Shown one piece after another: positions 194 to 34,467 of a stretch of DNA of 34,876 bases. Under the pieces are notes generated by a model. The model searched no databases. It was given only the letters and a program-made list of their open reading frames with translations, and was not told where the DNA came from. The stretch lies in the UHGV virus genome UHGV-0134942; one strand, 5' to 3'. Numbering within the stretch: position 1 is the first letter of the stretch; every line of letters starts with the position of its first letter. This DNA is from a virus. The position numbers and the translations under genes are program-made.

Positions 194-349
194 TTACCTT
201 TCAGATTCGTAGGCTGTGAAGACAGTGACCTCCGTCTGGCCGGTTCGGATTCGTACCTCGCAGAGGTCTTTCCTCGTTACCAGTGCCGTCACAATGACGG
301 TTAAACAGATGACGATCAGAGCGATTAATATCGCTTTTTGCTGCTTCAT
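194..349 (-). CDS. hok: Hok/Gef-family type I toxin (51 aa), not in the supplied ORF track because it is under 60 aa
   Basis: Manual minus-strand translation gives MKQQKAILIALIVICLTVIVTALVTRKDLCEVRIRTGQTEVTVFTAYESER, which matches the Hok/Gef family (single TM helix, conserved RKDLCEV and TEVxVFTAYES motifs). AAGGAG Shine-Dalgarno lies 9 nt upstream of the ATG at 349. Confidence 0.8.
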   Translation of the reverse strand: MKQQKAILIALIVICLTVIVTALVTRKDLCEVRIRTGQTEVTVFTAYESER

Positions 350-530: not shown

Positions 531-776
531 TCAATGTCTGGCTTTTTTTCTATAGAAATCACCTGGAAGGGTGAATATCCACATCAGAAGAAATGTTGCA
601 GCAAACATGATCCCTAATGGCCAGACCGCGCCAAAGAAAATCCATACTAAGATCTCCTCTGCTTGTTCTTTGCGGTCGATATCGACAAGCATTTTTCGGC
701 TGATCATGTATACACAGAAGCCAATACAAACATATCCTGCAAAAGCGATCGCTAACTGTAAAAAATCAGATTGCAT
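531..776 (-). CDS. Small two-helix membrane protein (81 aa), function unknown
   Basis: Track ORF 531..857; the internal ATG at 776 has a GAGG Shine-Dalgarno 7-10 nt upstream and avoids overlap with the upstream gene's 3' end. Two hydrophobic stretches (LAIAFAGYVCIGFCVYMI and ILVWIFFGAVWPLGIMFAATFLLMWIF). Confidence 0.4.
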   Translation of the reverse strand: MQSDFLQLAIAFAGYVCIGFCVYMISRKMLVDIDRKEQAEEILVWIFFGAVWPLGIMFAATFLLMWIFTLPGDFYRKKARH

Positions 777-826
777 CTCCGACCTCAAACTGAAAACGCC
801 AGGTGACTCCAGATTAGAGCAATCTA

Positions 827-1672
827 TCACCCTCTGAATCCTGCCGGTATACCCCATTGTTCGTTATCTTTATTTTTGGCTAAAACCGCATTAAGAGCTT
901 CGTTTACCGTCATGCAATGCGGCAGATTATCGAAGTTTGATATCCCGCCAATATCAGGAGAACGCTTGTCCTTCAGGTAAGCATGTTTCCGCGCTGCCGC
1001 CTCTACTTTCTGCTTGAACTCATGTTTTTGAGCGCGTTTTTTGGATAACCGCAGATTGTCAGCCTTTGCTTTTGCCTCAGCGATCCATGAAGTCAATTTT
1101 TTGAGTCTGGTCGTTCCGGCACCGCCGGAAACTGATCTTTTTGTTTTTTTAACTTGTGACTTCTTATTCTTTATTGCCACGTCATCCTGACAGGGGGAGG
1201 GGGTATCATTTTGACATGGGGGTGTGGATAAAAAATTAAATAAAGCCAATGTCTTAGCGAGAACAGCTTTAACCTTGGTTGCCGCTGAAGAGATCTTTAA
1301 TTTGCTTTCAATCAGCGCATTTTTGGCTTGTTGTGCGAAGGCCAAAAAGGATGGTGTAAACCGGTACAGGTTAGCGCGACGTTCACGGTGATCGCCGATA
1401 ACAATCTCTACAGACAGAATTCCTTTGTTTACAGCTTCACGGAATGCACGAACGACGGTTGATTGGCTATAACCAGTTTCTGCCGCGATCAGGCGGTGAG
1501 GCTTGTGAATGAAGTATTCACTGGTTGTTGCCGCGAGATTTGCACATTGCGACAGGATATGCCCGGCGCTACGGGATAGACCGGAGTGTGTTACAAAGCA
1601 GGCCAATTCATAGCCAGAAAAAGTAAAATCGCTCATCGTTATACAGCTCAGGAAAGTGACTTTAGCCAGCAT
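827..1672 (-). CDS. repL: RepL-like lytic replication initiator with helix-turn-helix (281 aa)
   Basis: Track ORF; HTH-like segment IAAETGYSQSTVVRAFREAVNKGILS. Sits directly downstream of the KilA-N gene, as in the P1 kilA-repL lytic replicon. Name is by synteny and size from memory, not a search. Confidence 0.6.
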   Translation of the reverse strand: MLAKVTFLSCITMSDFTFSGYELACFVTHSGLSRSAGHILSQCANLAATTSEYFIHKPHRLIAAETGYSQSTVVRAFREAVNKGILSVEIVIGDHRERRANLYRFTPSFLAFAQQAKNALIESKLKISSAATKVKAVLAKTLALFNFLSTPPCQNDTPSPCQDDVAIKNKKSQVKKTKRSVSGGAGTTRLKKLTSWIAEAKAKADNLRLSKKRAQKHEFKQKVEAAARKHAYLKDKRSPDIGGISNFDNLPHCMTVNEALNAVLAKNKDNEQWGIPAGFRG

Positions 1673-1701
1673 TACAATGCTGGTGGTTCTTACTACGTCT
1701 G

Positions 1702-2502
1702 TTAGCGCGTCGCCGCGACAGGCACCAGCACACCAGCATCAAGCAATCGCTTCATAAGCCACTGCTGACCTTTGCCGGTTATACGAGTCGTGAAAGAAAT
1801 CCTGCTTCCATTGCTTGTATCGATCACGGTTTCTTTAAGGGTGAAATACCTACGGGATATGTATTCTTGTTTGGGGACGTTCCTGCGTTCACCGGTTGCG
1901 ATCAGAATTCCGTTATCACGCAACCAGGTGAAGAGATAGTTTTGGCCCAGGCCGAGCACTTTGGCATAGTTGCCGATTAGAACCCCGCTGGCGGTAGCAA
2001 CGCGTTCGGCGAATTCGACTTTAGGTGCATCCATAAGCATTTTTTGCTCCAGCCGTTGCTTTTGCTCTGCCAGGTCGGCAGCCAAACGGAGAGCTTCAGG
2101 GAGACTCTGCGGAATAGCAGGTTGTAATCTTCCAGCTCGATAGTCGATAAATGTCTGGTTTACCTTCAGCCGAAACGCGGGAGAAATCCAGCCTGCGTAC
2201 TCCACAGCGAGCAATTCATGGGCAAAAGTGCCGCCGCCACGGCCTTCGAACGAAACTATGCAATTCTGCATAGTTTCTTTTTCAAGCTCTTCGATGAGCT
2301 GTTTAGCTGACAGCGTTCTTAGCCATTGAGCTGGCGCTTTATGGGCACCGAGTCCGCTCGCTCTGTGTAGAGCATTAAGGTTGTAACGGCCAGCGCGGTC
2401 GGTCGTAATTTCAACACCACAAATAACGGGCAGAGTGGTTGAAGGATCGACATTTTGATGAAGGTTTGATATATTCATATCCGCATTGAATGTTTGTTGC
2501 AT
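1702..2502 (-). CDS. kilA: KilA-like protein: N-terminal KilA-N-type domain plus C-terminal antirepressor (KilA-C/Ant) domain (266 aa)
   Basis: Track ORF; GGAG Shine-Dalgarno 7 nt before the ATG at 2502. C-terminal half is clearly paralogous to the C-terminus of the next gene (shared PEALRLAA-LAEQK, APKV-FA-RV, LIGN-AKV-GL, W-NGIL, YF..KE, TGKGQQWL motifs). Confidence 0.7.
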   Translation of the reverse strand: MQQTFNADMNISNLHQNVDPSTTLPVICGVEITTDRAGRYNLNALHRASGLGAHKAPAQWLRTLSAKQLIEELEKETMQNCIVSFEGRGGGTFAHELLAVEYAGWISPAFRLKVNQTFIDYRAGRLQPAIPQSLPEALRLAADLAEQKQRLEQKMLMDAPKVEFAERVATASGVLIGNYAKVLGLGQNYLFTWLRDNGILIATGERRNVPKQEYISRRYFTLKETVIDTSNGSRISFTTRITGKGQQWLMKRLLDAGVLVPVAATR

Positions 2503-2571
2503 TTTTTCTCCAAATTTGCATCAACCTTCAATCACCAGCTCGAAATGGTGATTCTTTGCACTTAGAAAACG

Positions 2572-2588
2572 AAATTTATTAGAGCAAA
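2572..2588 (-). promoter_or_regulatory. C1-repressor operator-like 17-mer in the ant/kilA intergenic region (P53-like position)
   Basis: Minus strand reads TTTGCTCTAATAAATTT, 16/17 identical to the P1 C1 operator consensus ATTGCTCTAATAAATTT as recalled from memory; located about 70 nt upstream of the kilA start. Confidence 0.5.
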
Positions 2589-2665
2589 TTTTTCTGACTC
2601 GATCCAGATCGGGTTGGACGATCTGCTCAGAAACCTGCCAGTTTGCTGGCAGGTTTTTTCTTTTG

Positions 2666-3331
2666 TTAACCTATTGCTACTGGTTTTAACAAACCAGCAT
2701 CAAGTAGCTTGCGAGTTAACCACTGCTGGCCTTTACCCGTTAATTGGGGCGTCAGCCGTATCTGGTAGCCATTTTCATCATCCAGCACCACTTCTTTCAC
2801 CGTGAAATACCCGGCGTTGATGTACTGTTGGCGCGGTACGTTTTTGCGCGCACCAAAAGCCATGAGAATGCCGTTCTGGCGCAACCATGAGAAAAGGGCG
2901 TTTTGCTTAAGTCCAACGACCTTTGCAAAGTTCCCGATCAGGATTCCATTAGCCGCTGATACCCGGTCGGCAAAATCGACTTTAGGGGCTGCGGCCACCA
3001 GCTGTTGTTCCAACTGCATTTTCTGTTCTGCTAACTCGGCAGCCAGGCGTAGAGCTTCTGGTAATGTTTGGGGGATCGATGGGGCAGGGGAGTTTGCCTG
3101 CTGTAATTCTTCCAGTTTGTCGATCAGCGAACGGCGGACCGCTTTTGACTCGCGCGCGGCAACTCGCAGGGCTTGTTTGTAGGTCATGGTTATAATATCT
3201 ATTTCTGCGCCGTTTTTTTGACCTACGAAAATTTCGTAGGTTTCTCCTTCAAGCTCATCCTTAACTCTGGCAATGAAATCATTGTTGCGAACTGGTTTTT
3301 CGCTACATAATTTCCGTGCCTCATTGACCAT
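2666..3331 (-). CDS. ant: Antirepressor (Ant-like, KilA-C-type C-terminal domain); frame runs open upstream to the IS1 boundary, so likely a 5'-truncated ant1 / Ant2-like remnant
   Basis: Track ORF 2666..3340; first ATG at 3331 (MVNEARKL...). Manual translation shows the same frame has no stop from 3332 to 3433, the base adjacent to IS1. C-terminal domain is paralogous to the kilA product. Confidence 0.6.
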   Translation of the reverse strand: MVNEARKLCSEKPVRNNDFIARVKDELEGETYEIFVGQKNGAEIDIITMTYKQALRVAARESKAVRRSLIDKLEELQQANSPAPSIPQTLPEALRLAAELAEQKMQLEQQLVAAAPKVDFADRVSAANGILIGNFAKVVGLKQNALFSWLRQNGILMAFGARKNVPRQQYINAGYFTVKEVVLDDENGYQIRLTPQLTGKGQQWLTRKLLDAGLLKPVAIG

Positions 3332-3488
3332 CTTCAACAATGTTTGGCTGTCGATTGTGTCTCCGGTGTTGGGGATGACATTCAGGGCTGGTGCTGGCGT
3401 AGCTGAAGCAACAGGTGCTGGTTTTTCAACATTGGTGATGCTGCCAACTTACTGATTTAGTGTATGATGGTGTTTTTGAGGTGCTCCA

Positions 3489-3764
3489 GTGGCTTCTGTT
3501 TCTATCAGCTGTCCCTCCTGTTCAGCTACTGACGGGGTGGTGCGTAACGGCAAAAGCACTGCCGGACATCAGCGCTATCTCTGCTCTCACTGCCGTAAAA
3601 CATGGCAACTGCAGTTCACTTACACCGCTTCTCAACCCGGTACGCACCAGAAAATCATTGATATGGCCATGAATGGCGTTGGATGCCGGGCAACCGCCCG
3701 CATTATGGGCGTTGGCCTCAACACGATTTTCCGCCATTTAAAAAACTCAGGCCGCAGTCGGTAA
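3489..3764 (+). CDS. insA: IS1 InsA (91 aa)
   Basis: Protein [43 protein letters not shown]... is the canonical IS1 InsA. Confidence 0.95.
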
Positions 3765-4186
3765 CCTCGCGCATACAGCCGGGCAGTGACGTCATCGTCT
3801 GCGCGGAAATGGACGAACAGTGGGGCTACGTCGGTGCTAAATCACGTCAGCGCTGGCTGTTTTACGCGTATGACAGGATACGGAGGACAGTTGTGGCGCA
3901 CGTTTTCGGTGAACGCACTCTGGCCACACTGGAGCGTCTTCTGAGCCTGCTGTCGGCCTTTGAGGTCGTGGTATGGATGACGGATGGCTGGCCGCTGTAT
4001 GAATCACGCCTGAAGGGAAAGCTGCACGTTATCAGCAAGCGTTACACTCAGCGCATTGAGCGACATAATCTGAATCTGAGACAACATCTGGCAAGGCTGG
4101 GACGGAAGTCGCTGTCGTTCTCAAAATCGGTGGAGCTGCATGACAAGGTCATCGGGCATTATCTGAACATAAAACACTATCAGTAA
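3683..4186 (+). CDS. insB: IS1 InsB reading frame (B'); the InsAB' transposase is made by a -1 frameshift from insA
   Basis: 167-aa ORF with the canonical IS1 InsB sequence (…[54 protein letters not shown]…). Confidence 0.9.
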
Positions 4187-4203
4187 GTTGGAGTCACTAC
4201 CTT

Positions 4204-5394
4204 GGATCTGAAGGTAAGGCAAATCTCGATAAGTTGGCTCCGTATTTTGCTGAACTAGAGAATAAATATGGTCTTCCAGAAGGCACTCTTTACGCGATTG
4301 CTGCAACTGAATCTGGTGGTAATCCGTATGCAAAATCCCAAACCGGTGCTCTGGGAATGTTTCAGTTCACGGGGATTGCTCGTGAAGAGACTGGCTTAGC
4401 TGAAGGTGAATCGTTTGATCCTGTGAAATCGGCAGAAGCTGCGGCTCTTCTCATGAGCAAGTATCTGAAGCAAGCCAATGGAGACTTAAACGAGGCCATC
4501 ACTGCATATAACGCTGGGTTTGGCACTATCAATAAGTGGAAAAAAGGCACAGGTGACTTATCGAAAGAAAACCGTGAGTACGCGATCAAGGTCAATACTC
4601 ATCGTGCTCGCTATTTAGGTGGTGAAATCTATACACCTGGAGCAGGAGCACAGGGTGGGGCGCAATATGGAGTGAGGGGACCACTGCCTGATAACGCTGT
4701 TATCGATCAGTCTACTGGCCTGGCGTTTACCCCTAGTGATAGCCCGTTTGAGAAAGGCGGTCTGGTAGACAAAATCGGCAATGCTGTTGGCGTTAACGAT
4801 CTGGTCAACAAATTCATGAATGGCCGGGGTATGCGTCGGGAAGTCGTTCAGGGAACGCTCGAAGAACGTGCACGAGGGAAGGGGACCGCAACAGCAGCTG
4901 GCAATGTGTATGTTGATACTCCGATGCCAGTTGAAGAGGCGCGTCCGGTGACCAGCAACTCAAGTTACTTTGACCAACTCGGCGCACAAATGGGGATTGA
5001 TGGACTATTCGATAAACTCCGCAACTCGCCGGGGATGCGGAAAAATAATGCGCCTGAACCAGCCTCCACGTCCCAGGTGACGACTGCCGCCAACGATTTG
5101 CAGCAACCAACCGGTCGTATGCAGATAGACGGACAGGTTATTAGTGACCTTGGTGGTTCCGGTGCCAAGCCGACAATGCAGTTGGCTGATAATACCGTTT
5201 CACTTGATGGTGAAACGAAGCGGCTGTTTGCGCAGATGACCTCATTACTTGCCAGGATTGAAGAGCACACCAAAGACTCGGCGAAAGGCCAGGGAACTGT
5301 CGTAAAGGTCAGCACGCCTCAGCCGGGCGTTATGCGCACGGTACCACTGTCAATTGATGATCCGTTGATGAATGACTACGCGAGAGTTGATTGA
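4204..5394 (+). pseudogene. sit: 5'-truncated sit-like structural injection transglycosylase (C-terminal about 396 codons, lytic transglycosylase domain)
   Basis: Reading frame is open from the first in-frame codon after IS1 (4204); the track only finds a TTG start at 4234. SLT-domain motifs ATESGGNPYAKSQTGALGMFQF and AYNAG are present. Followed by pmgA/bplA-like genes as in P1. Confidence 0.65.
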
Positions 5395-5750
5395 TGGCCA
5401 ACAATAACGAAATTGATCCTTTGCTGACGCTGGAGTTATCCGGCGTAAAAACGTATGAGTCCCAGGAGGAGGCCTGGGGCGCTCGTTTATATGAGTGGCT
5501 AAACACTTATCAGGGTGAGGTATACGGAGATCCGTCATGGGGCAATGTTTTACCGCAGTTTAAACACGAACCGACCAACTTGTCGCATGTTCAAATTGCG
5601 GTTGAGGCAATGCTGTTGCAAAAACTGACGGTAGATTTATCTGACATACCGATTTCTGGCTTGTCAGTAGCCGAGGGAGATGCTTTTGATAAGTTGAAAA
5701 TATCCATTCGTATCAGGGATATAACTATCACACAGGACGTGGTGCTATGA
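5394..5750 (+). CDS. pmgA: Putative tail/baseplate morphogenesis protein (118 aa)
   Basis: Track ORF; ATG at 5394 overlaps the upstream stop (translational coupling). Name by synteny only. Confidence 0.45.
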   Translation: MANNNEIDPLLTLELSGVKTYESQEEAWGARLYEWLNTYQGEVYGDPSWGNVLPQFKHEPTNLSHVQIAVEAMLLQKLTVDLSDIPISGLSVAEGDAFDKLKISIRIRDITITQDVVL

Positions 5751-7180
5751 GTAAAACAACACCGACTAAAGACAGTATTCGTGCAGAGTTTGAAGAGCTT
5801 GTCGAGAAAGATTCATTCTGGTCGAAGTTTGTCGGCTCTCAATTTGTCTCGATGCTGACATTGTTTATTACCCAGATTGTCTACAGGTGCTTTCAGTATG
5901 CCGATGCGGCGCTGGCTGAAGGCTTTATATCGACCGCGACGCGGCGTTCCTCTATCTTGGCAGCGGCAGAAACGAATAGTTACGTTGGTACCAAGCCAAC
6001 ACCGTCATCGGGGATGATTGAGATCACCGCCACAAGTGAAGATGCCCCAGCGGTAATCCCCAAAAACATGCCTTTAATATCTGACGACCAGTACCCTTAC
6101 ATGACTATGGATGTATGCAGGTTGGTTGACGGCACCGGTACGGTAGAAGTGGCACAGTTGGAAATCCAGGAGGTGACATATACCGTTACGGCAGCCAAAG
6201 AATTTCTGGAAGTCGTGTTATCAAAGGCTCTCACTGCTGTCTGCTATAAGCTGGAAGTATTCGTGACGACCGATGGTAAGACCACGCAGTGGTCTTCCAG
6301 CACTATGTTCCGGTTAGCCGGTAGTAAAAGCCAGGTCTACGTTGAGTTTTATAAACCATCCGAGCAGTTGGGGGTTCGATTCGGTGATGGGCTAATTGGG
6401 CAAATACCGCCAGAAGGCTCGACCATTACACTTAAGGTATGGTGCACCAACGGAGATATAACCTTGGTTGCTGGCCAAAATCTGACGCCTGTCGATTCTG
6501 CGGCTAATTTAGCTAATTTGATTTCAGTTAAGACAACGACACCCATAACCGCAGGTACCGATGCCGAAACAACGGAGATCACACGTAATCGTGCACAATA
6601 TTACCTTGCCTATGATGATCAGGTCGTATGGGGCGGGGACTATACGTATTTTCTGGTGCGTAACATCCCGGGACTGTCCTGGGTAAAGGCATGGGGCGAA
6701 GGCCAGCAAGAGAAATTAGATGGTGCTTATAATATCCGGAATATCAATAAGATATTTATTTCAGGATGGCATCCAAACAAAAGCCAGTCAGAGCTTGAAG
6801 AAATGATCCTGGCTGCCTTTAAGAAGGTGCCGAATGAGTTGAACAAGAAATTCTCGTATAAAGAGGTCAGAAAACTACCCTTTAAGATCACCATCACCGG
6901 GCGGATATCGGCAAGCCTGACCATTGAGAACGTGACTGATGAGCTGAAGTCGGCACTGGAAACAAAATTTGGGCGTGACTCAACTTTCTTTGATCCGAAC
7001 CGTGTCGGCAAGTACATCCTAATCAAGAAAAAAGACGTTTGGGCATTTATCGAAACGCTGGGTTATTTCCGCGACTTTTATCTGGAATTTGTCGAGTGGA
7101 ATGAGTCCAACGGCTTTTACGATTTCGTTTATCTGGATACAGAAAACTCCACCTTTAATATTTCGTATGAGGAGGAGTGA
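5747..7180 (+). CDS. bplA: Baseplate protein (477 aa)
   Basis: Track ORF coupled to neighbours by ATGA overlaps at both ends; position between sit and the tail fibre genes. Name by synteny. Confidence 0.5.
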   Translation: MSKTTPTKDSIRAEFEELVEKDSFWSKFVGSQFVSMLTLFITQIVYRCFQYADAALAEGFISTATRRSSILAAAETNSYVGTKPTPSSGMIEITATSEDAPAVIPKNMPLISDDQYPYMTMDVCRLVDGTGTVEVAQLEIQEVTYTVTAAKEFLEVVLSKALTAVCYKLEVFVTTDGKTTQWSSSTMFRLAGSKSQVYVEFYKPSEQLGVRFGDGLIGQIPPEGSTITLKVWCTNGDITLVAGQNLTPVDSAANLANLISVKTTTPITAGTDAETTEITRNRAQYYLAYDDQVVWGGDYTYFLVRNIPGLSWVKAWGEGQQEKLDGAYNIRNINKIFISGWHPNKSQSELEEMILAAFKKVPNELNKKFSYKEVRKLPFKITITGRISASLTIENVTDELKSALETKFGRDSTFFDPNRVGKYILIKKKDVWAFIETLGYFRDFYLEFVEWNESNGFYDFVYLDTENSTFNISYEEE

Positions 7181-8016
7181 TGCAGCGTTCCTGGTTTAAT
7201 AACCGGCTTACATCAGCTAAGCAAAAGTCATTGCTCTATAAATCATTGGCTGATTTGGTTCAGTCAATGATGGATACCTTTGTTGACCCATGGTTGGAGC
7301 GAATTACCAACCGGAAGTCTATTTTTTCCATGAGCAAGGAGGATCTGGAGACCAGGACAAATGAACTTGGCCAGTTCTTTACTATCAGAACGTCGAACTC
7401 ATCTTCCGTTCCGATGTTGTTACAACAGCGTCTTGATGAGATTCACTTTAAGGGGACTGAACGCCCTATAAACCAGACAATTTACCGCGAATTTAACGGT
7501 ATTTCTGTTTTATGGGATCCGATATATGCACCGGTGGACCTTGAGCGTCATCCCTATGGCACGGTTCTAATACCAGAAAGCACACTGGAGACTACCGGCG
7601 GCACATTCGGCGAGATGTTTCTGACTTCCAGAGGGATGATCAGTATTCCCATAAACGACCTGGCCCGGACAATGGGGATTACTGGCACGATAGATCAGTC
7701 CGCAATTACAGAAGAAATTCTCAGAAAGTTTAATCAGTTCGTAAAGCCTCTACTGCCACTGCATATAGTGTTTGATGGGCTTACGCTCTATTTGTCGGTT
7801 GTTGTAAATGAACAGGCCGACATGATCACTTTGAACGAGATTTCTGATACCGAAAAAGCATTCTGCTGGTTTGAAACTTCGGATACAACTTCGCTTACTG
7901 GAGTTACGTCGATTAGCGCCCCGATCACCGCAACGCCTGGTGGCACTATTGTGAAAGCGACACCTACGTTTGATCGCACACGCGCAGATGATTTGTTGCT
8001 GGATAGCGACGCCTGA
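7180..8016 (+). CDS. Baseplate/tail structural protein (P1 gp16-like, 278 aa)
   Basis: Track ORF 7177..8016; ATG at 7180 overlaps the bplA stop. Confidence 0.5.
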   Translation: MQRSWFNNRLTSAKQKSLLYKSLADLVQSMMDTFVDPWLERITNRKSIFSMSKEDLETRTNELGQFFTIRTSNSSSVPMLLQQRLDEIHFKGTERPINQTIYREFNGISVLWDPIYAPVDLERHPYGTVLIPESTLETTGGTFGEMFLTSRGMISIPINDLARTMGITGTIDQSAITEEILRKFNQFVKPLLPLHIVFDGLTLYLSVVVNEQADMITLNEISDTEKAFCWFETSDTTSLTGVTSISAPITATPGGTIVKATPTFDRTRADDLLLDSDA

Positions 8017-8019
8017 CAA

Positions 8020-8044
8020 TCACCCCGTCCGCAGGGCGGGGTGA
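8020..8044 (+). terminator. GC-rich stem-loop after gp16 (possible attenuator or weak terminator)
   Basis: CACCCCG(8021-8027) pairs with CGGGGTG(8037-8043); weak U-tract downstream. Confidence 0.3.
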
Positions 8045-8094
8045 CAAGTTACTTCTCTTACAATGAGGCTTCACAACATTGATTAGGGAAAATC

Positions 8095-8529
8095 ATGTCT
8101 GACGTCTCAACAAACCTCTATAAGAGTCAGTTGTTGGACTATTACTATCAGCGGCGCGCTGAATCGTCCATTAACAAAGGCTCTCGATTTTTAATCAGCA
8201 AGGCCGTTTTCGGTACCAGTTCACTGGTTACTAAGAAAGGAGATGGCACTTATGAGATTGGAGAACTGCCAAAGGCTTTCGATCTGGCAGAACTGACCAG
8301 TCAATTTTGCACCATCAACCTCGTCCCAACCTACTCAGGCGGGATAATAACTGTCCGAATGGACCTTGATCAAAGCCAGTTGCAGGAAGGGAAAAACTAC
8401 CCATTCAACACTCTGGTTGTTCTGGATAACGAGAACAAGCCAATCGCCATTATTTGTGTCCAGGAAGACTCGCTGTATGTGGGCAAAACATATACCGCAG
8501 TTATGGCCATAAACACGACTACAGCATAA
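8095..8529 (+). CDS. R: Tail fibre-associated structural protein (P1 R-like, 144 aa)
   Basis: Track ORF immediately upstream of the tail fibre gene; stop at 8527-8529. Confidence 0.45.
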
Positions 8530-8540
8530 GGATATGCTTG

Positions 8541-11500
8541 ATGAATGACGTTACAGTTGTCACATCGGTTACTTACCCATCACCCGAGTCGTTGGCTCTG
8601 GTGGCTGATGTGCAATACCACGAACCATATCTGTCAGCCGCGCTAAACCGAAAATTCAGGGGGATTGTTGACCCGGGATTTTATGCCGGTTTCTTACCTA
8701 AGCCTGGCGGTGGGATGAACCTGTTAATCACCTCAGTGGATGGTGATAAAACCGCAGGCGCGGCGTCGGTGGATATTGGTGAATTCTACCAGGTAACTAT
8801 TCAGCAACGTAAGGATATTTCTCTTGCACTTAGTGCAGGCAAGAAATATGCAATTGTGCTGAAGGGAAGATACCTCCTTGGAGAAGATACCTATCAGGTG
8901 AATACCGCGTCACATATTCATGCGGCTGAATTTGTTTCCAGAACCTATACCGATTCATATCAGTTAGGAGATGGGGAGCTGCTTGTTTGTACGGTGAATA
9001 TCCCTGCTGGTGTATCTGCCATTACCCAGGAGATGATTGATACATCCAAGCGTATCAACCGCACGATCGGCATTGATATTTCAGACTCTGTAACCAGTAC
9101 CAGAAGTGATGTTGCTGCGAGTTCGCTGGCAGTTAAAAAAGCCTACGATCTGGCTAAAAGCAAGTATACGGCGCAGGATGCAAGCACAACACAAAAGGGA
9201 TTAGTTCAGCTCAGTAGCGCAACTAACAGCGACAGCGAAACAATGGCGGCTACCCCTAAAGCCGTTAAGTCTGTAAAAGAGCTGGCTGATACCAAAGCGC
9301 CAATAGAAAGCCCGAGTCTGACAGGAACGCCAACCGCGCCGACGGCAGCGCAAGGTACAAACAGCACGCAGATCGCAAATACAGCCTTTGTTAAGGCAGC
9401 TATAACGGCACTTATCAACGGTGCACCTGGCACACTGGATACGCTTAAAGAAATAGCTGCTGCGATCAATAACGACCCGAATTTCAGCACAACTATCAAC
9501 AATGCTCTGGCTCTTAAAGCTCCTTTAGCAAGTCCTGCATTAACGGGAATACCTACTGCGCCTACCGCTGCACAGGGTACGAATAACACGCAGATTGCTA
9601 CGACCGCTTATGTAAGAGCTGCTATCTCTGCATTGGTCGGCTCATCACCTGAAGCTCTTGATACTCTGAATGAGCTTGCAGCAGCACTGGGCAATGACCC
9701 GAACTTTGCGACAACAATGACAAATGCGCTGGCAGGCAAACAGCCTCTGGATGCAACTTTAACCGCGCTCGCTGCCCTTGCGACTGGTGCAAACAAACTG
9801 CCTTATTTCACTGGTAAGGATACGGTAGCGCAGACTGATTTAACGTCAGTCGGTCGCGATATTCTGGCTAAAACAAGCACACTGGCCGTTATCCAATACC
9901 TTGGTTTAAGAGAACTCGGTACCAGCGGTGAAAAGATCCCCCTGTTGAGCACGGCTAACACATGGAGTGCGCGCCAGACTTTCAACGGCGGGATCACCGG
10001 GGCGCTGACAGGGAACGCCGACACCGCGACGAAATTGAAAACAGCACGCACGATTGGCGGTGTGGCATTTGATGGCTCGGCCAATATCAATCTTCCAGGT
10101 GTAAATACAACAGGTAACCAGAACACCACGGGGAATGCTGCTACCGCGACAAAACTTGCGACGGCAAGAAACATCAACGGTGTTAAGTTTGATGGCTCAG
10201 GCGATATCAACATTAATACATTGGTATCTCGTGGCCGAGTTACGGCGTTAAGCGGCTCTACTCAAGGCACTGCTGGCATTCAAATGTACGAGGCGTACAA
10301 CAATAGCTACCCGACCACGTATGGCAACGTATTGCACATGAAAGGTGCGAGTGCTGCTGGTGAGGGCGAGTTGCTTATTGGCTGGAGTGGTACGAGCGGT
10401 GCACATGCGCCAGTTTTCATTCGCTCCCGAAGAGATAACACAGATGCGGCATGGTCTGAGTGGGCACAGGTCTATACATCGAAAGACTCCATACCGGGCG
10501 TAAATACAACGGGCAACCAGAACACAACAGGAAATGCGGCGTCTGCCACGAAATTACAAACGGCAAGAACCATTGGTGGCGTTTCATTTAATGGTACCGC
10601 AAACATCGACCTGCCAGGTGTGAATAAAACAGGTAATCAGAGCACTACTGGCAATGCTGCAACTGCAACAAAACTGCAAACAGCACGCACAATAGGCGGC
10701 GTATCATTCGATGGCTCCGCCAATATCAATCTGCCGGGTGTAAACATTGCTGGTAACCAGAACACAACCGGTAATGCAGCTACGGCTACCAAATTGCTAA
10801 CAGCGCGTACCATTAATGGGGTTTCATTTGACGGTTCTGCGAATATTTCACTGTCACCAGCAAATATTGGTTGCCCGGCATCTCCTACTGGTTGGCTTGT
10901 AACAGGTGATAATGGAGCTTCAATAACAACAGAGCAATTAGTGACTCTGCTACGAGATAATGGTGCTTTTAATGCAAAGGCATGGATAGCGCGTTGTGCC
11001 TGGGCGTATGCAAATAGTGCATCCATACCAGACAGCGAAACAGGATGCGGCATTATTCCACTGGCTGGCGCAGTTATTGAGGTATTTAATAACGGCAGTA
11101 GCTCAAACAATTATACGATTCGTATAACAACGGCAACAACGACAGGTGTCTCTGGCGCACTCACTAATGCGGAGTTTGTCTATGTGTTTAACGGGACGAG
11201 CTATTCACCAGGATGGCGCAGAGCGTATAACACTAAAAACAAGCCTACTGCGGCTGATGTCGGAGCTTTACCACTATCTGGAGGAGCGTTAACTGGCGGA
11301 TTAACTGCTGCTGGCGAGATTATTTCCAAATCGGCGAATGGTCTGCGCATTGCCTACGGAAACTACGGATTCTTTATCCGAAACGATGGTTCAAACACAT
11401 ATTTCATGTTGACCGATTCGGATAACAGCCTAGGAACCTATAATAGGTTAAGGCCGCTTATCATTAACAATGCCAATGGTGCTGTTACGATCGGTAATGG

Positions 11501-16069: not shown

Positions 16070-17989
16070 ATGGAGCAGTTCAATATCAATAAAGGGGTGA
16101 CGATCAAGCCTGGGCTTGACGTGCTTCCCCCGCCAGTGACTGATGATGAATATCGCGCATTAATGGCCGGTGAGGACCGCTATCTGATGACGGAATCCAA
16201 CACCCTGGAGGAAATCGAGGCTACGTTCTTCTATGACACGCCGATCCACTGGTGTGCTACGGATTTACTGGAGGCGATTAGTTCTACTCGTTTGCAGTTA
16301 CACCGGACCATGCAGGCATTTGTCCGGGCATTGAACCAGAAGCTGAATGGTACCGGAATCTCTGCGGGGAGTGATAAAACGGGGGATGTGGCCCAGAACG
16401 GCGCGCGCGCGATCGGCGGTGCTGAAATTGGCCGGGCACGGAACGTTAACGGGCTGCCGGTCCTGCCAGCCATTATTCCGCTCAGTGATGGTCAGACTAT
16501 CAGCATTCTGTTTCATAGCCCGACAGCGGAAAACCGGATCACCAATAGCGATACGCTGGTTGCTTTCCAGTTCTTACTGAATAAAAAAGACGTTACTCAC
16601 ACCGTTGCTCCGATGAGTGGACGTGATATGACGCTGGCGCAGGTCACCATGAAACTTGCCAACCTTGCAGAGAAAAACTCGGCAAAATTCCAGCGTGCGC
16701 AGAAGAAGAAAAAAGCCCTGGTTGATGAAATAACCCAACTACAGGCTGACAGTGACCAGAAAGAGGATGCCATGAGCGACCTCGCGGATCAGGTGGCAGT
16801 GGTAGAAGGGCAGAAGGCAGATCTGGAGCAGAAAATTAACGCGGTCGCCTCGGAAGCGGATTCTCTTTATGAAGAGAATGAGCGTTTGCAGGCGGAGATT
16901 GATCAGCTCAATCGAACAGGTGGGCGCGATACCATTGCTCCAGTGGCAATAACTGGTGGGCACTCACGCGCGTTGACGGATCGCCTTGCCAGTATCAAAA
17001 ATCGCATGCATATGGACGGTGAAGCGACGCTCAGTAATGGTGCATCAATGAAGCAATTCATTGGGGATGGCGAAGGGTATATCCAGTTAACCGATCCGGA
17101 TGGCAGCGTATACATGATCAAGGCTAAATCCATACAGGGTGTGGACATGGCAGATGCAATCGGCAAGCTGTTTAAAGCCTATAAAGCGGGTAATGTATCG
17201 GAATACCTGGTCCAACCAGAAGAACATAAACCGGAAAACGTCGAACCTGAACCAGCGGAGGATACCGGTAGCTCTTCGCCTGAACCAGAAGTCTCTGTAG
17301 GTGCATATCGATATGCCCTGCAAATGCGTCCGGCGGCCCCTGGCGCAATACCTGAAGGTAACAAAGCAATTCTGCCGCGCCCTGATGAAGGTGACCCGTA
17401 TTATGAATATGCACGCTACGGCATTGCTACTTACGATACCCCGCTTTCTGATCAGCAAATGAGTGAGTACGACCTGAAGTTATTGCCTCGCGAGGATTCT
17501 TTCGATTTCCTGGCGAAGACACTTACTAATGGTCCGTTTGGCAAATATGCACAAAAAGCTCTGGAGCTGGCCACCAGCTCACCAGACGAGTTCCGCGTAA
17601 TGCTGAAAACTCAGTTTCAAAAAACTTTCCCCAATATTGCGTTTCCTGGGGGCGCTGGCACCGAGAAAATGGTGCAGAGCATGATCAATGCATTGCAGGC
17701 CGAAGTCGGTGAGATTACTCAGCCAGAACCGGCCCCGGCACAGCCTGATGAAACGGTTAGCGAAGCAGATGCAGAGGCTAATAAAGCCATTGAATATCTC
17801 AATAACGTGATGGATATGCAAAGCACTGACATGGCGGAGATCCGTAACGCCCGGGGCAATGTCCGGGAAGCGATTGCAGCCCTTCAGGCTGCCGGACGTT
17901 TTGAGGAAAACGAAGAGCTGGTTAACGGCGCAGCTCGCCACCTGGCTGATCTGTTGGTAGCAATCCAGAAAGCGGGGGTAGCGGCATGA
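16070..17989 (+). CDS. darA: DarA-like internal head protein, anti-restriction (639 aa)
   Basis: Size and position match P1 DarA as recalled; central coiled-coil and acidic segments; AGGAAA Shine-Dalgarno before the ATG. Confidence 0.6.
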   Translation: MEQFNINKGVTIKPGLDVLPPPVTDDEYRALMAGEDRYLMTESNTLEEIEATFFYDTPIHWCATDLLEAISSTRLQLHRTMQAFVRALNQKLNGTGISAGSDKTGDVAQNGARAIGGAEIGRARNVNGLPVLPAIIPLSDGQTISILFHSPTAENRITNSDTLVAFQFLLNKKDVTHTVAPMSGRDMTLAQVTMKLANLAEKNSAKFQRAQKKKKALVDEITQLQADSDQKEDAMSDLADQVAVVEGQKADLEQKINAVASEADSLYEENERLQAEIDQLNRTGGRDTIAPVAITGGHSRALTDRLASIKNRMHMDGEATLSNGASMKQFIGDGEGYIQLTDPDGSVYMIKAKSIQGVDMADAIGKLFKAYKAGNVSEYLVQPEEHKPENVEPEPAEDTGSSSPEPEVSVGAYRYALQMRPAAPGAIPEGNKAILPRPDEGDPYYEYARYGIATYDTPLSDQQMSEYDLKLLPREDSFDFLAKTLTNGPFGKYAQKALELATSSPDEFRVMLKTQFQKTFPNIAFPGGAGTEKMVQSMINALQAEVGEITQPEPAPAQPDETVSEADAEANKAIEYLNNVMDMQSTDMAEIRNARGNVREAIAALQAAGRFEENEELVNGAARHLADLLVAIQKAGVAA

Positions 17990-21680: not shown

Positions 21681-22641
21681 AATCGCTTTCCACTTCTTCC
21701 GTAGTGTTTTCTTGCAGTTCTGTTAATGCAGCACGACACAGGCTCCGGGCATTGGCTATAGCCACACTTTTGACTTCATCCGTCATCGTGCAGGTAATGT
21801 ACTGATCGAGTTCTTCAGCGCGGATGATGCTTTTGCCAATCAGAAACTGTATTTGCCAGAGCAGATCAGCATCCATAATCAGAATTTCTGCCGGGCCTTC
21901 AGGACCAGCCGGGAAGGAAACATAAGACTGTTTGCCCAGGCCGATAACTCGACAACTTGCTTCAAGAATTGCGCGATTGAGGTCTGACTTTGTAACTGAT
22001 ACAGGTTGATTTTCACCTGCGATTACGCCGTTGACATGGATGTGGAATGGCATGTAGCTTGAAATTCGCTCTACTTTCCATACGCCAGCAAGCGATCCTT
22101 CATGCAGCACAATGGGGGTAACCGCGAGTTTCATCTCACCATATAACTGCTGGCAGATAGCTGGATTGCTGAATACATCCAAAGGTTCACACTCAAACAG
22201 CGGCGCAATCTGTATGAGGTCCATCATGGTCATACCAGGGGTACGAGCAGTAATGAATCTGCGCATGCCAGTATCCATTGTGCGCCAGATAGCTACACCA
22301 TGCTTTTTGCTCACTTCTTCAGTAAAGCCAAGGTGGCACATGATGGTTTTTTCGATAGCCAGATCAGAGATAGAAACCTTTTCGCCAGGTACACCATCAT
22401 TATTGATGGTCACTTCGACACTCTGGCCATTACGCAGGCGGTATTGAATTGTTTTAGTATTTTGTGCTGTCATAGTCTTTTCTCTGCTTAAAAACTGATG
22501 TATTGCGCCTTCAGGTGGGTCAGGAATGTTTTCCCACCAGCGAAAGCAATATCTCGGGGTGTTCTTTTCGTGAAAAGCGCGTGCCATTGCCAACTTTGGC
22601 GTTTTTTTGCGAGTTCGTGCTTTTGTCGGCGTCTTGACCAC
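21679..22641 (-). CDS. Hypothetical protein (320 aa, start uncertain); occupies the position of P1 isaA/isaB
   Basis: Long minus-strand ORF between ssb and the Dar operon. Very basic N-terminus suggests the real start may be an internal Met (for example MTAQNTK). Confidence 0.5.
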   Translation of the reverse strand: MVKTPTKARTRKKTPKLAMARAFHEKNTPRYCFRWWENIPDPPEGAIHQFLSREKTMTAQNTKTIQYRLRNGQSVEVTINNDGVPGEKVSISDLAIEKTIMCHLGFTEEVSKKHGVAIWRTMDTGMRRFITARTPGMTMMDLIQIAPLFECEPLDVFSNPAICQQLYGEMKLAVTPIVLHEGSLAGVWKVERISSYMPFHIHVNGVIAGENQPVSVTKSDLNRAILEASCRVIGLGKQSYVSFPAGPEGPAEILIMDADLLWQIQFLIGKSIIRAEELDQYITCTMTDEVKSVAIANARSLCRAALTELQENTTEEVESD

Positions 22642-22675
22642 CGCTTTTCTTTCAGTCGTTTTTTACTCATAAACT

Positions 22676-23164
22676 CTAAAACGGAATATCGTCGTCAAAG
22701 TCCATTGGAGGTTCGTTATTGGCGTTGCTCTGAGGTTTACCGCCACCACTGTATTGCTGGTGGTTTTGAGGTTGGTTTGATTGCCCCCAGCCATTTGAGG
22801 ACTGTGAATCGTCACGGCGAGCGCCGATCATTTGCATGGTGCCGCCCTGGCTGACGATAATTTCCGTCGTGTAACGTTCTACACCGACGTCATCTGTCCA
22901 CTTACGGGTTTTAAGTTTCCCTTCGATGTAGACCTGAGAACCTTTTCGTAAATACTCACTCGCAATTTCAGCAAGTTTTCCGAACAAAACGACTTTATGC
23001 CATTCTGTCTGCTCTTTCTGTTGGCCCGTTTGCTTGTCGCGCCATGATTCATTCGTTGCGATGCTGAGTCTTCCGACAGCGCCGCCATTTGGTATATACC
23101 TGATCTCCGGGTCTTGCCCCAGGGTACCAATCAGGATGACTTTGTTTACACCGCGTTGTGCCAC
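22676..23164 (-). CDS. ssb: Single-stranded DNA-binding protein (162 aa)
   Basis: Canonical SSB OB-fold N-terminus ([20 protein letters not shown]…[12 protein letters not shown]), Gly/Gln-rich linker and acidic tail DFDDDIPF; GTG start. Confidence 0.95.
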
Positions 23165-23183
23165 TTATCTTACCTAATAAAAT

Positions 23184-23200
23184 AAAATGATTAGAGCAAT
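23184..23200 (-). promoter_or_regulatory. C1-operator-like 17-mer in the ssb/lyz divergent intergenic region
   Basis: Minus strand reads ATTGCTCTAATCATTTT, 15/17 to ATTGCTCTAATAAATTT. Confidence 0.45.
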
Positions 23201-23333
23201 AATGTATATCTTTGAAACGTAGCTAACAAGTGATTTGCATTATCCTGTGCCTTCTAAAGGGATCGAGTCAGTCGGTATTGACTGTGAATGGGTATTTGTC
23301 CTGGAGCGTAAAAAATTCGCTTATGAGGTCTTT

Positions 23334-23891
23334 ATGAAGGGAAAAACAGCCGCAGGAGGCGGTGCAATTTGCGCTATCGCGGTGATGATTACCATCGTGA
23401 TGGGTAATGGCAATGTGCGAACCAACCAGGCGGGGCTTGAGCTTATCGGAAACGCTGAAGGTTGCCGACGTGACCCATACATGTGCCCGGCGGGTGTATG
23501 GACTGACGGGATTGGTAATACACACGGGGTAACGCCAGGCGTGCGAAAAACCGACCAGCAAATCGCCGCTGATTGGGAAAAGAATATCCTGATCGCTGAA
23601 CGCTGTATTAATCAGCACTTCCGGGGCAAAGACATGCCCGATAATGCCTTCAGCGCAATGACAAGCGCGGCATTCAATATGGGATGCAATAGTTTACGGA
23701 CCTACTACAGCAAAGCGCGAGGCATGCGAGTCGAAACGTCCATCCACAAGTGGGCGCAGAAAGGGGAATGGGTGAATATGTGTAACCATCTCCCTGATTT
23801 TGTGAACAGTAACGGCGTCCCCCTGCCCGGGTTAAAGATTCGCCGTGAAAAAGAACGCCAGCTTTGCCTGACGGGGCCGGTCAATGAATAA
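23334..23891 (+). CDS. lyz: SAR (signal-arrest-release) endolysin (185 aa)
   Basis: N-terminal MKGKTAAGGGAICAIAVMITIVMG signal-anchor, Cys at positions 13, 44 and 51, lysozyme motif ELIGNAEG. Track ORF 23235..23891 begins at an upstream alternative start. Confidence 0.9.
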   Translation: MKGKTAAGGGAICAIAVMITIVMGNGNVRTNQAGLELIGNAEGCRRDPYMCPAGVWTDGIGNTHGVTPGVRKTDQQIAADWEKNILIAERCINQHFRGKDMPDNAFSAMTSAAFNMGCNSLRTYYSKARGMRVETSIHKWAQKGEWVNMCNHLPDFVNSNGVPLPGLKIRREKERQLCLTGPVNE

Positions 23892-24138
23892 ACTCCGGCA
23901 GCTCCGCCGACTTTCGACAATGAAGTTATCGCTGGCGGCGATAGTTTTCGACTCGATTTTCATGGCGGTATATGTGCTCAATGAGACGTGGCCACTGGAA
24001 CCGCTATTGTATGCTGGGCTTCGGCTGTGCCTGACATTTTTGAGCATGGCTGCAAGATTGATGCAGCAGAAAGAAACCGCTTCAGATTGTCCACGCCGCG
24101 CGGTGCGCAAATATATGGCACGCAGGCGAAGGCGATAA
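23884..24138 (+). CDS. Possible small membrane protein overlapping the lyz stop (84 aa)
   Basis: ATG inside the lyz stop region; two hydrophobic segments followed by a basic tail (RRRRR). Could be a lysis accessory protein or spurious. Confidence 0.3.
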   Translation: MNKLRQLRRLSTMKLSLAAIVFDSIFMAVYVLNETWPLEPLLYAGLRLCLTFLSMAARLMQQKETASDCPRRAVRKYMARRRRR

Positions 24139-24150
24139 TAGTTAACGAGA

Positions 24151-24177
24151 ACCCCGGCAGCCGCCGGGGTTATTTTT
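24151..24177. terminator. Rho-independent terminator between lyz and the 3' end of pro
   Basis: ACCCCGGC / loop AGCC / GCCGGGGT followed by TATTTTT. Confidence 0.7.
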
Positions 24178-24182
24178 GGTGG

Positions 24183-26913
<2,731 letters not shown>

Positions 26914-26980
26914 TTAATTAGAATAATTCGCATCGTGTTTGAACGGAAATTTAACACTAGTCACTTGTTAAGGATTACCA

Positions 26981-29900
26981 ATGAACAAGCTATCTATGGG
27001 GGTGTTTCGCTGTTCAAGTGTCAGCGAAATATTGAAATACATTAGGGCAATAACATCTCACCGAGCGCCGATTAAATACGGCGTGGAAAAGGTGGAAGGC
27101 AAAAGCTATGACCGACTGCGCCGTGAGGCGAATCAGAAGGCGATAGATTTGCTTAATTCGCTGGTGGACGGCGCGACACTGACAGATGAACAGCGCCAGA
27201 TCCTGGCCGGGTACACTGGTGAAGGCGGCATTGGCGGGTCCGTCTCCGAATATTACACACCAAAGCCTATCGCTGAAGGTGTCTGGGAGATCATGAAGCT
27301 CTACGGCGCGGACGTAGGTAACACTCTGGAACCATCGGCGGGAACCGGCGTTTTTAATGAGACAAAACCGGTTGGTACGGTGATGACCGCGACTGAGATC
27401 AGCAGTGTTTCCGGTCGTATAAACCAGTTGTTACACCCGGAAGACAGCGTACAGATTTCCCCGTTCGAACAGCTGGCTATAAACACGCCTAACGATTCAT
27501 TCGACCATGTTGTGGGTAACGTTCCGTTCGGCGGTCGTGATAACACACGCAACATCGATAAGCCTTACGCAGAAGAAACGGACATGGGTTCTTACTTCAT
27601 GCTCCGCATGCTGGACAAGATAAAGCCAGGCGGATTCATGTGCGTGATTGTGCCGCCGTCCATTGTTTCAGGTTCAAACATGAAGCGGTTACGCCTGCGC
27701 CTATCACGGAAAGCTGAATTTCTTGGTGCCCACCGCTTGCCTACCGGTACTTTTGACGCAAACGGGACCAGTACGGTCGTTGACGTGGTGCTGATGCGCA
27801 AACATCCGGCGGAGATGGCTGAGAAAATCCCCCTGGTGGATGAAGGCACTCTTGAATCGGCAAATGTGCTTTGGCCAACGTTTATTTCTGGCAAGTGGTT
27901 TGAAAAGGACGGCCGCCGGTTTGTTCATGGCACTCAGGAGAAGGGATTTCAGGGGCGTATTGAGGTTCGTGCCGACGGGCAGATTGATAACCAGGCTCTT
28001 AAAGCGAAGCTGATTCATCGTTTCGAAAGTCGTATCGACTGGTCTTTGCTCGATATGGCTGAACCGTCACCGACCGCAGATGTTGTTGATGAAGGGGAAA
28101 TGCGCCTGATTAATGGCGTATGGCAAAAATATGCTGGTGGTCGCTGGATTGAAGCTGATGCCGGGAAGGAGCTGAAGATTGAGGTTGCCAGTTATGGCGC
28201 GGATAGCTGGGAGGCTCTTCAGCGTAACCTGACTACAACAGAAGGCCGTCTCGGTATGACATTTACCCAGATGGCAAATGTCCGCGATAAGTACACCACA
28301 TCAATCAGCGACGATATGGTGCAGCTGGTGGACTGGATTAACAGCCAGCCTGAAAAATACCGTGAACGCTTGTATCGTGGGGCGATGATTGGCCGGATGT
28401 TAATTGAATATCAGGATATGAAGGCCGCCGGGCATAGTGCTGAACAAATCGAACAGCAGCGCCTTTCTCTGGTATCCCGTTTGCAGGCAGAGATTGACCG
28501 TTTTGGTAACCCCGGTCGCGGTCCGATAGCGAAATTATCGGGGAGCGGTGCGCGCGCCTGGTTTGCTTTCCGTGGTGCAATTAAGCTGGATGGCACTATT
28601 TCTGACGAGCTGACAGGAAAACTGGTTACGCATGATTCCATCGCCAGTTATGACTCCACCAGCTATCAGGACACCCTGCGTTATCTCTACAGTGATCTCA
28701 CTCGCGATCCAATCCAGCTCGATGATTTCCGCCTTGCGTTTACCGGCGAACTGCCAGCCAGTGATGATGAGTTGCTTAATTTATTGGCCAGCACCCCTGG
28801 CATTGCGGTTTCACCGTATGGCGGGATTGTTCCGTTCGCCCGCGCCACCAGCGGCGACATTAACGAGATAGTGGCTCCAAAACAGGAATTCCTCGCCACG
28901 CTCCCCGACGGTCCAGTAAAGAACAACGTCCTTAATCAGCTGGCAGCGATCGAAGAGAAGCGCATCAAGACGCCAGCAGAGAATATCCGCTTTAAGCTCA
29001 ATAGCCGTTGGTTCGACCGTTCCGTCATTCTGGAGTTTTTGCAGGAAAACGGCTATCCGGATCTGCGCTATGTGCAGTCAGTGCAGCTGGAAGGCGACGA
29101 AATGGTTTCTGACACCTATCACGGTGGTGATGGTCTGTTCGTCGGGCACCGATACGGTGTCGTCCAGCGCAAGGATAAAGAAACAGGCGAGATCCGCTAC
29201 GAGTGGGACCGTAAATCAGGTGAAAACGCGACCGGGTTCCCGGCACAGCTGGAAAAGTATCTCAATGGTGCGCGTATCGGTGGCAAAGATAGCGCGACGG
29301 CGAACGGCTACCGCGAGCAGATGGCACTGCTTGAGGACCAGTTCAATAAGTGGATCAAGACGCACGATCGCTACGATGAGCTGGTTGCCAAATACAACGA
29401 TGTGTTCAATAGCAATATCCCGTATGAACACTCTGGCGATCCGCTTGGGTTGAAGGGATTAAGCGGTAAGCGCCAGCCATTTGATTACCAGAATAGCGAG
29501 GTGCGCCGACTGTCCGAAGATGGGCGCGGCATCCTGGGCTTCGGCACCGGGCTGGGTAAAACCACGACCGCGCTGGCGCTTGAGGCGTTCAACTATGAGA
29601 ACGGTCGCTCCACCCGTACTGCGTATGTAGTGCCTAAATCAGTGCTGGAAAACTGGTATTACGAAGCAAAAGAATTCCTGAGTGAAGAGGCATTCAGTAA
29701 CTACCTGTTCGTCGGTCTTGATGTGCTGATGGATGGCGATCAGATTCGCCAGGTGCCGGTGCTCGATGAGAACGGTAAACCTGTTCTTGGTACTGATGGC
29801 ACTCCAGTTATGCGCGATGCTCTTAAGCTGGCAGATGAAGCCACTATCACGGCGCGGATGAACGCGATCCCGCACTCAAATTACCGTGCAGTCGTGTTTA

Positions 29901-33781: not shown

Positions 33782-34222
33782 ATGGCCACACTATCTGATA
33801 CAATAAAACCGAATAAAACATATCTTGAGGCGGTACTCCGTACAGCGTTGTTAGGAAAGACAGAAGACGAATACGTTGATTTCTTCCTGTCAGGGCTACG
33901 CGGGCGATTACTGAAAAATCCCCGCCTGTACCGCAGCTATGGTCCATACTGGCCGGAAATTAAAAAATTATTACTGGAGCGCGGTTATGGTAATTTCGGT
34001 CGTCTCGTTGACCGTGACGTTCGCAAAATTTACCGTTATGACCGCCCGGCGCTAACACTCATAGCCGCGACGCTCTACAGCCAGGAGCGTTTTGATAATG
34101 GTCAGATATACTCAGCCTGGCATTTACTGCCAGTGCCTGAAGAAGTTGACGACCAGGACTATGAGTTTGAGTCTTACGATTTGGAAGTTGAAGCCTTGGC
34201 ACAGGCTGGAGAGAAAACTTGA
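33782..34222 (+). CDS. ulx: Hypothetical protein downstream of darB (146 aa)
   Basis: Track ORF; name by synteny only. Confidence 0.4.
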   Translation: MATLSDTIKPNKTYLEAVLRTALLGKTEDEYVDFFLSGLRGRLLKNPRLYRSYGPYWPEIKKLLLERGYGNFGRLVDRDVRKIYRYDRPALTLIAATLYSQERFDNGQIYSAWHLLPVPEEVDDQDYEFESYDLEVEALAQAGEKT

Positions 34223-34467
34223 AAAAGCGATACTACACAGTAAAGCATGGGACGCTACGAGCATTACAAGAGTTTGCTGATAAGCATAACGTTGAGGTGC
34301 GCAGGGAAGGGGGAAGTAAAGCTCTGCGCATGTACCGTCCGGACGGGAAATGGCGTACGGTCGTCGATTTCAAAACTAACAGCGTTCCCCAGGGCGTCCG
34401 CGACCGGGCATTCGAAGAATGGGAGCAGATCATCATAGATAACGCATTGCTCCTGAATGCTGATTAA
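34219..34467 (+). CDS. lxc: Small protein (82 aa), Lxc-like by position
   Basis: ATGA overlap with the upstream gene; name by synteny only. Confidence 0.4.
   Translation: MKKRYYTVKHGTLRALQEFADKHNVEVRREGGSKALRMYRPDGKWRTVVDFKTNSVPQGVRDRAFEEWEQIIIDNALLLNAD

Follow-up and report, generated by a model that had tools for sequence, protein, structure and literature searches.

Operators bound by the repressor C1 of P1 are dispersed and asymmetric, with a published 17-bp consensus, ATTGCTCTAATAAATTT, as cited in PMC8546580. The complexes formed between C1 and its operators are strengthened by the co-repressor Lxc (P1 annotation; PMC8546580). At one such site, Op53, bound C1 overlaps the promoter P53, thereby blocking expression of kilA and repL and lytic replication from oriL, which lies within repL (PMC9948254). 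A literature search found no paper on the positional requirements of the C1 operator. P1-like phage-plasmids are common carriers of resistance genes.

The DNA considered here, a stretch of 34,876 nucleotides from the virus genome UHGV-0134942 (hereafter, the window), was assigned by megablast to the P1 group (Punavirus): it represents part of an IncY-type phage-plasmid and is 96-98% identical to P1, its plus strand running in the opposite direction to the P1 map (Table 1). Two IncY P1-like Escherichia coli plasmids, p6CP1-IncY-mcr-3.5 (NZ_CP064027.1) and NZ_CP122848.1, are 100% identical to window positions 1-4201/4203 and share with the window Op53, the Op55-type site and an IS1 insertion in ant1. 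With a probability of about 0.93, the window is read as part of a plasmid prophage resembling P1, in which the 17-mers flagged by the original prediction appear, from sequence and position, to be copies of the dispersed asymmetric C1 operators.

Both ends of the window were also inspected. In NZ_CP064027.1, a plasmid with 100% identity, an IS4-like element, IS421, has its edge where position 1 of the window falls (4888-6000 of the plasmid sequence compared), which suggests a contig broken off at a repeat. At the other end, a truncated ORF, of which the C-terminal 123 residues fall inside the window, lies 3' of lxc and gave no Pfam match. The place following lxc is occupied by mod/res in P1, by a SIR2-family gene in NZ_CP122848.1 and by this different ORF in the window, and seems to accommodate variable cargo or defence genes. 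Pfam searches with Hxr and IsaA likewise gave no match.

Table 1. Features of the window and their P1 counterparts (PWM, position-weight matrix).
Feature	Positions	Strand	P1 counterpart	Basis or remarks
Hok/Gef-family toxin (hokD in relatives' annotation)	194-349	-		PF01848, E = 1.3e-21
81-aa two-helix membrane ORF	531-776	-		replaces rlfA/rlfB
Half-preserved Orlf (former Op55) orthologue, ATTGCTCTAATCTGGAG	807-823	-	ATTGCTCTAATTATAAC	11/17; core intact, right half replaced
Segment with repL, kilA and 3' part of ant	813-3433		51585-48955	96.5% identity
repL (281 aa), lytic replication initiator and second gene of the predicted C1-repressed operon, holds oriL	827-1672	-	repL/oriL	matches annotated P1 repL/oriL
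kilA (266 aa), first gene of the predicted C1-repressed operon	1702-2502	-	kilA	Pfam KilA-N and ANT/KilAC
Antisense promoter PaskilA (former P53as)	2447-2475	+	PaskilA	inside kilA 5' end; promoter scan
Putative C1 operator, OrepL (former Op53) orthologue	2572-2588	-	TTTGCTCTAATAAATTT	identical to annotated P1 operator, 17/17; PWM
Rest of promoter PkilA/P53	2589-2606	-	PkilA/P53	alignment to P1 promoter annotation
IS1	3434-4201
Segment following IS1	4201-10045		42211-36337	96.8% identity
Segment with isaA, ssb, lyz, pro, prt and darB	22001-28000		22209-16217	98.0% identity
ssb (162 aa), gene predicted to be controlled by the Op21 orthologue	22676-23164	-	ssb	Pfam SSB, E = 7.8e-40; P1 annotation
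Putative C1 operator, Ossb (former Op21) orthologue, ATTGCTCTAATCATTTT	23184-23200	-	ATTGCTCTAATTAATTT	15/17; P1 alignment; PWM
Late promoter LPlyz of divergent lyz	23228-23246		LPlyz	intact
Candidate operator-like 17-mer, ATTGCCCTAATGTATTT	27035-27051	-	17166-17182	inside darB 5' end, opposite strand to darB
ulx, upstream of lxc	33782-34222	+	ulx	98.6% identity
lxc (bof), co-repressor	34219-34467	+	lxc	tblastn, 82/82 identical to P1 Lxc
Truncated ORF 3' of lxc	34505-34876	-

Candidate C1 operators upstream of kilA and ssb

The original prediction had quoted three 17-mers as resembling the C1 operator, two at regulatory positions upstream of kilA and in the ssb/lyz divergent region and one, called degenerate, just past the repL stop. 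All three strings were found where predicted (2572-2588, 23184-23200 and 807-823), in each case on the minus strand, the plus strand showing their reverse complements. When the window was scanned with the C1 consensus, allowing up to three mismatches, three matches were returned, namely 2572-2588 (one mismatch), 23184-23200 (two mismatches) and a further site at 27035-27051, which had been overlooked; the string at 807-823, with six mismatches, does not conform to the consensus.

The same sites were next scored with a position-weight matrix derived from the 20 annotated P1 operators that are monovalent. When P1 itself was scanned at a threshold of 12 bits or more, 19 annotated operators were recovered together with only three other sites, so that the matrix can be considered specific. 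In the window, scores of 25.3 bits (2572), 20.8 bits (23184), 15.8 bits (27035) and 0.3 bits (807) were obtained. With the three orthologues left out of the matrix, then built from 17 operators, the first two sites still scored 22.1 and 20.6 bits. Given that the annotated monovalent operators of P1 span 14.9-29.2 bits (Op99c lying at 14.9), this matrix scan, which had been suggested as a check, places 2572 and 23184 within the range of P1 operators and 807 outside it.

The annotation of P1 (AF234172) places a 'phage repressor C1' protein_bind feature exactly at each of the three aligned positions. All three sites are thus positional orthologues of annotated operators, in line with the original claim of C1 operator copies at regulatory positions. 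The only other P1-annotated operator in the interval covered, Oc4/Op51, falls in a segment missing from the window.

The promoters in question were considered next. P53 and the ssb promoters went undetected in a generic sigma-70 scan because the hexamer criteria used are too strict for weak promoters, and were instead mapped by alignment to the P1 annotation. Op53, situated 69 nt upstream of the kilA ATG (2502), overlaps the -10 hexamer (TCTAAT; 2578-2583) of the sigma-70 promoter PkilA/P53 that drives kilA-repL, with the -35 hexamer (TGGATC; 2601-2606) lying 17 nt further upstream. Across the 166-nt region upstream of kilA, two differences from P1 were seen, with none being in the operator or in the promoter hexamers; the kilA-repL DNA is 96.5% identical to that of P1. 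The antisense promoter PaskilA (TCGACA-17-TATATT; 10/12, with TG) was detected by the generic scan exactly at the position annotated in P1, and belongs with P53 to one control region of the lytic replicon.

As the operator and promoter hexamers are identical to those of P1, for which published C1 evidence at this very Op53 sequence exists (PMC9948254), the same mechanism as in P1 is the only reasonable reading. C1 on Op53 would exclude RNA polymerase from the -10 region of P53, and kilA and repL, and hence lytic replication from oriL, would be shut off in plasmid lysogeny.

The ssb GTG (23164) is preceded by Op21 at a distance of 19 nt; the operator starts directly after the -10 hexamer of P2ssb (TACATT; 23201-23206) and covers the predicted -35 hexamer of P1ssb, with the hexamers being the same as in P1. 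In the surrounding 111 nt, three differences from P1 were noted, two of which fall at operator positions 12 and 14, precisely where P1's own operators are most degenerate. The T at position 14 is also present in P1 Op82, Op86a and Op99e. No annotated P1 operator presents a C at position 12, and so the affinity of C1 for the window version of Op21 may differ. Since the geometry of Op21 is unchanged and the substitutions lie at degenerate positions, C1 bound between the -10 hexamer of P2ssb and the ssb start would be expected to repress the phage ssb gene, possibly with altered affinity. By sequence, position and promoter overlap, both Op53 and Op21 are assigned to the C1 operator family, and we infer from published work on P1 that C1 would bind and repress at these sites.

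Natural variation at the two operators was then surveyed. Op53 was invariant among 21 IMG/VR relatives comprising 11 haplotypes (0/17 variable columns vs 14/169 in the flanks). For Op21, five alleles were encountered among 62 IMG/VR relatives (P1 type, 50; window type, 6; others, 3, 2 and 1), with changes at operator positions 1, 10, 12, 13 and 14; NZ_CP122848.1 carries the P1-type Op21, unlike the window. In PLSDB, 86 of 500 records reached 99% identity or more with the window across the 111 nt around Op21. Op21 is slightly more variable than its flanks (5/17 vs 17/157; Fisher p = 0.045), which suggests that the right half of the operator is tolerant of change or tuned rather than strictly constrained, and may reflect tuning of ssb repression.

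The use of conservation as proof of selection was considered and rejected, this being an under-powered comparison (Op53 showing 0/17 vs 14/169, and Op21 varying more than its flanks). Moreover, because the surrounding DNA is 96-98% identical to P1, operator conservation does not by itself demonstrate selection.

The operator core downstream of repL

Only 3 nt separate the string at 807-823 from the repL stop codon (827-829), in agreement with the original prediction. The degenerate copy is better described as a half-operator cut by a mosaic breakpoint, and a score of 0.3 bits lends no support to its functioning as an operator. The left 11 bases, ATTGCTCTAAT, correspond exactly to the operator core, an 11-mer found twice in the window as compared to an expected 0.017 times. 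The remainder differs: all six mismatches to the consensus lie in the right half, leaving the site unseen by the scan allowing up to three mismatches, and of the matrix score (0.3-1.0 bits), the left 11 positions contribute +19.8 and the right six -18.9 in the case of the 0.3-bit value. DNA homology with P1 and P7 begins at window position 813, the edge of the core. The sigma-70 scan revealed no promoter overlapping 807-823.

In a tblastn search with P1 proteins, RlfA and RlfB were absent from the window, their place being taken by a membrane ORF, for which no Pfam match was found, and a Hok-family toxin. When the Op55 position was compared across 63 IMG/VR loci, only two types of right half were seen, each strictly tied to the downstream module. 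The CTGGAG type (57/63, including one CTGGGG) is followed by the 81-aa ORF and the Hok toxin, while the TATAAC type (6/63) precedes rlfA/rlfB, as in P1 and P7. In PLSDB, a 161-nt junction query was matched over 80% or more of its length by 343 of 480 records, which were read as carrying the window-type junction; many of the remaining records match only from window position 813, at the core edge. The membrane ORF together with hok is the majority arrangement in P1-like plasmids. Because the right half strictly follows the downstream module, 807-823 is a mosaic junction that has preserved the operator core.

Could this site nonetheless serve as a working operator, with the 11-base core recruiting C1 with the help of Lxc? 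C1 recruited in this way would keep transcripts coming from repL or a nearby promoter from extending into the membrane ORF and hok, or would loop the DNA to Op53. The exact core was present in 63/63 IMG/VR loci, albeit with a search pattern that required it. The right half of P1 Op55, TATAAC, is itself already poor (1/6 consensus matches) and yet the site is annotated as C1-controlled, and a known operator can score as low as 14.9 bits, as Op99c does. These points are outweighed by a right half that contributes -18.9 bits and offers 0/6 consensus matches, by a full-length score far below that of every annotated P1 operator except Oc1b, which is active only within a bivalent site, by the lack of an overlapping sigma-70 promoter in the scan and by the strict co-variation of the right half with the downstream module, as would be the case for a passive junction. 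C1 binding here is doubtful given the full-length score of 0.3 bits, and a working operator at 807-823 is considered unlikely. With its core kept and its right half foreign, the junction would most likely bind C1 weakly or not at all.

More speculatively, the core ATTGCTCTAAT could represent a conserved boundary for cargo exchange after repL (involving rlfA/rlfB, the membrane ORF with hok, or a third type) or a minimal C1/Lxc half-operator that couples the hok module to prophage derepression, although either proposal is improbable.

The IS1 junction and the sources of C1 and Lxc

Examination of the region flanking IS1 (3380-4260) revealed that the element, found in ant1, is not bordered by a target-site duplication and that its right flank corresponds to the middle of sit. 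Relative to P1, some 6.7 kb (P1 42211-48955) are missing, including c4, icd, the 5' portion of ant1, simABC, pmgC, tub, pmgB, approximately two thirds of sit (the 5' part) and Oc4/Op51. In p6CP1-IncY-mcr-3.5 (NZ_CP064027.1), the left IS1 junction is the same as in the window, but the insertion into ant1 is a simple one, flanked by a 9-bp duplication, TTCAACATT. In NZ_CP122848.1, the left junction is again that of the window, whereas the right flank is different, lying upstream of pmgC, with the deletion being larger in the window than in this plasmid. These junctions fit IS1-adjacent deletions of different lengths. The IS1-sit junction was found in none of the complete E. coli genomes or PLSDB plasmids searched. 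It looks like a deletion that rendered the prophage defective, the alternative being that two sequences were joined at IS1 during assembly. Provided that the deletion is genuine, the element has no means of making tails and has lost the immI antirepressor circuit but has kept the C1-repressed kilA-repL operon. Loss of the immI antirepressor region and of tail genes probably locks the element as a non-inducible, defective plasmid.

The sources of C1 and its partner were sought by tblastn. With the P1 proteins as queries, C1, Coi and Lpa were not detected in the 34.9-kb window, confirming the absence of c1 that had been stated. Control in trans was predicted on this basis; the absence of c1 supports that view, but control cannot come wholly from outside the window, since the co-repressor gene lxc is found at 34219-34467. 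In the complete relative NZ_CP122848.1, a 'phage repressor protein C1' identical to P1 C1 at 280 of 283 residues is encoded, and 23 matrix matches of at least 12 bits were counted, of which 16 have the very sequence of an annotated P1 operator. By analogy, C1 would be made from immC elsewhere on the replicon, and Lxc supplied from the window would stabilize the C1-operator complexes.

The missing segment raises the prospect that the operators are mere relics on a defective element devoid of a functional C1 circuit, with IS1 (3434-4201) running straight into the middle of sit and c4, icd, the 5' part of ant1, simABC, pmgC, tub, pmgB, the 5' part of sit and Oc4/Op51 all having been lost relative to P1. 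This is improbable, considering that kilA and repL are intact, that relatives with the same IS1 insertion retain an intact c1 and that lxc is 100% conserved. Furthermore, since the P1 annotation presents KilA as host-killing, a plasmid that keeps kilA and repL needs repression at Op53.

Chance matches, unannotated sites and the relation to P1

The likelihood of such matches arising at random was assessed in two ways. The three consensus matches compare with 0.11 expected, and this number was reached in 0/100 dinucleotide-preserving shuffles. Among 500 Markov-1 random windows, a best match of at least 22.1 bits was seen in 0.8% (P = 0.008) and a second match of at least 20.6 bits in none, while a best match of at least 16.4 bits arose in 9.6%. 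A random origin of the matches, as AT-rich, promoter-like sequences instead of repressor sites, is therefore extremely improbable, for while the operator consensus does contain a -10-like TCTAAT and an AT-rich tail, and a single match of 16.4 bits or more is common enough to perhaps explain the darB-internal site, neither the excess of consensus matches nor two matches of at least 20.6 bits is so explained, and P1 has experimentally defined operators at the orthologous positions. Together, the consensus and matrix statistics and orthology to P1 rule out chance for 2572 and 23184, so that only 27035-27051 may still be a chance match.

This last 17-mer lies 54 nt after the darB ATG, presents three mismatches to the consensus and, at 15.8-16.4 bits, is borderline. 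An identical 17-mer is found in P1 and in NZ_CP122848.1, with the P1 record carrying no operator annotation at that position. That it is an overlooked C1 site is conceivable but also improbable.

Other sequences of this type were observed beyond the window. In P1 (AF234172), positions 1485-1501, just upstream of c8, read ATTGCTATAATTATTTG and score 19.2 bits, a strong site that bears no operator annotation. In NZ_CP122848.1, positions 31133-31149 read ATTGCTCTAATTATTTG, scoring 23.2 bits, and may be the counterpart of the P1 site.

Thanks to these operators, the fragment can be assigned to a P1-type immunity regulon, and the main value of recognizing them lies in correct annotation. The lethal kilA gene and the repL lytic replicon would be kept silent by the classical C1/Lxc system, judging from P1, while the alleles of Op21 and the half-operator at the Op55 mosaic junction may tune or remove C1 control of single genes. 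The finding is correct but ordinary, because well-known C1 operators sit where P1 has them; it was already known, both strong sites being as in P1.

The window agrees with OrepL/Op53 of P1 in the 17-mer, its distance to kilA, the promoter hexamers, the antisense promoter and all three GATC sites; the operator shows no differences, and the two substitutions are confined to the rest of the 166-nt upstream region. With Ossb/Op21, the window shares the position between the -10 hexamer of P2ssb and the ssb start and the 11-nt core, but reads CATTTT in the right half where P1 reads TAATTT (positions 12 and 14). With Orlf/Op55, the location 3 nt past the repL stop and the 11-nt core are likewise shared, but CTGGAG replaces the TATAAC of P1, the score falling from 18.6 to 0.3 bits, and whereas Orlf in P1 sits ahead of rlfA-rlfB, its counterpart in the window sits ahead of the 81-aa membrane ORF and the Hok-family toxin.
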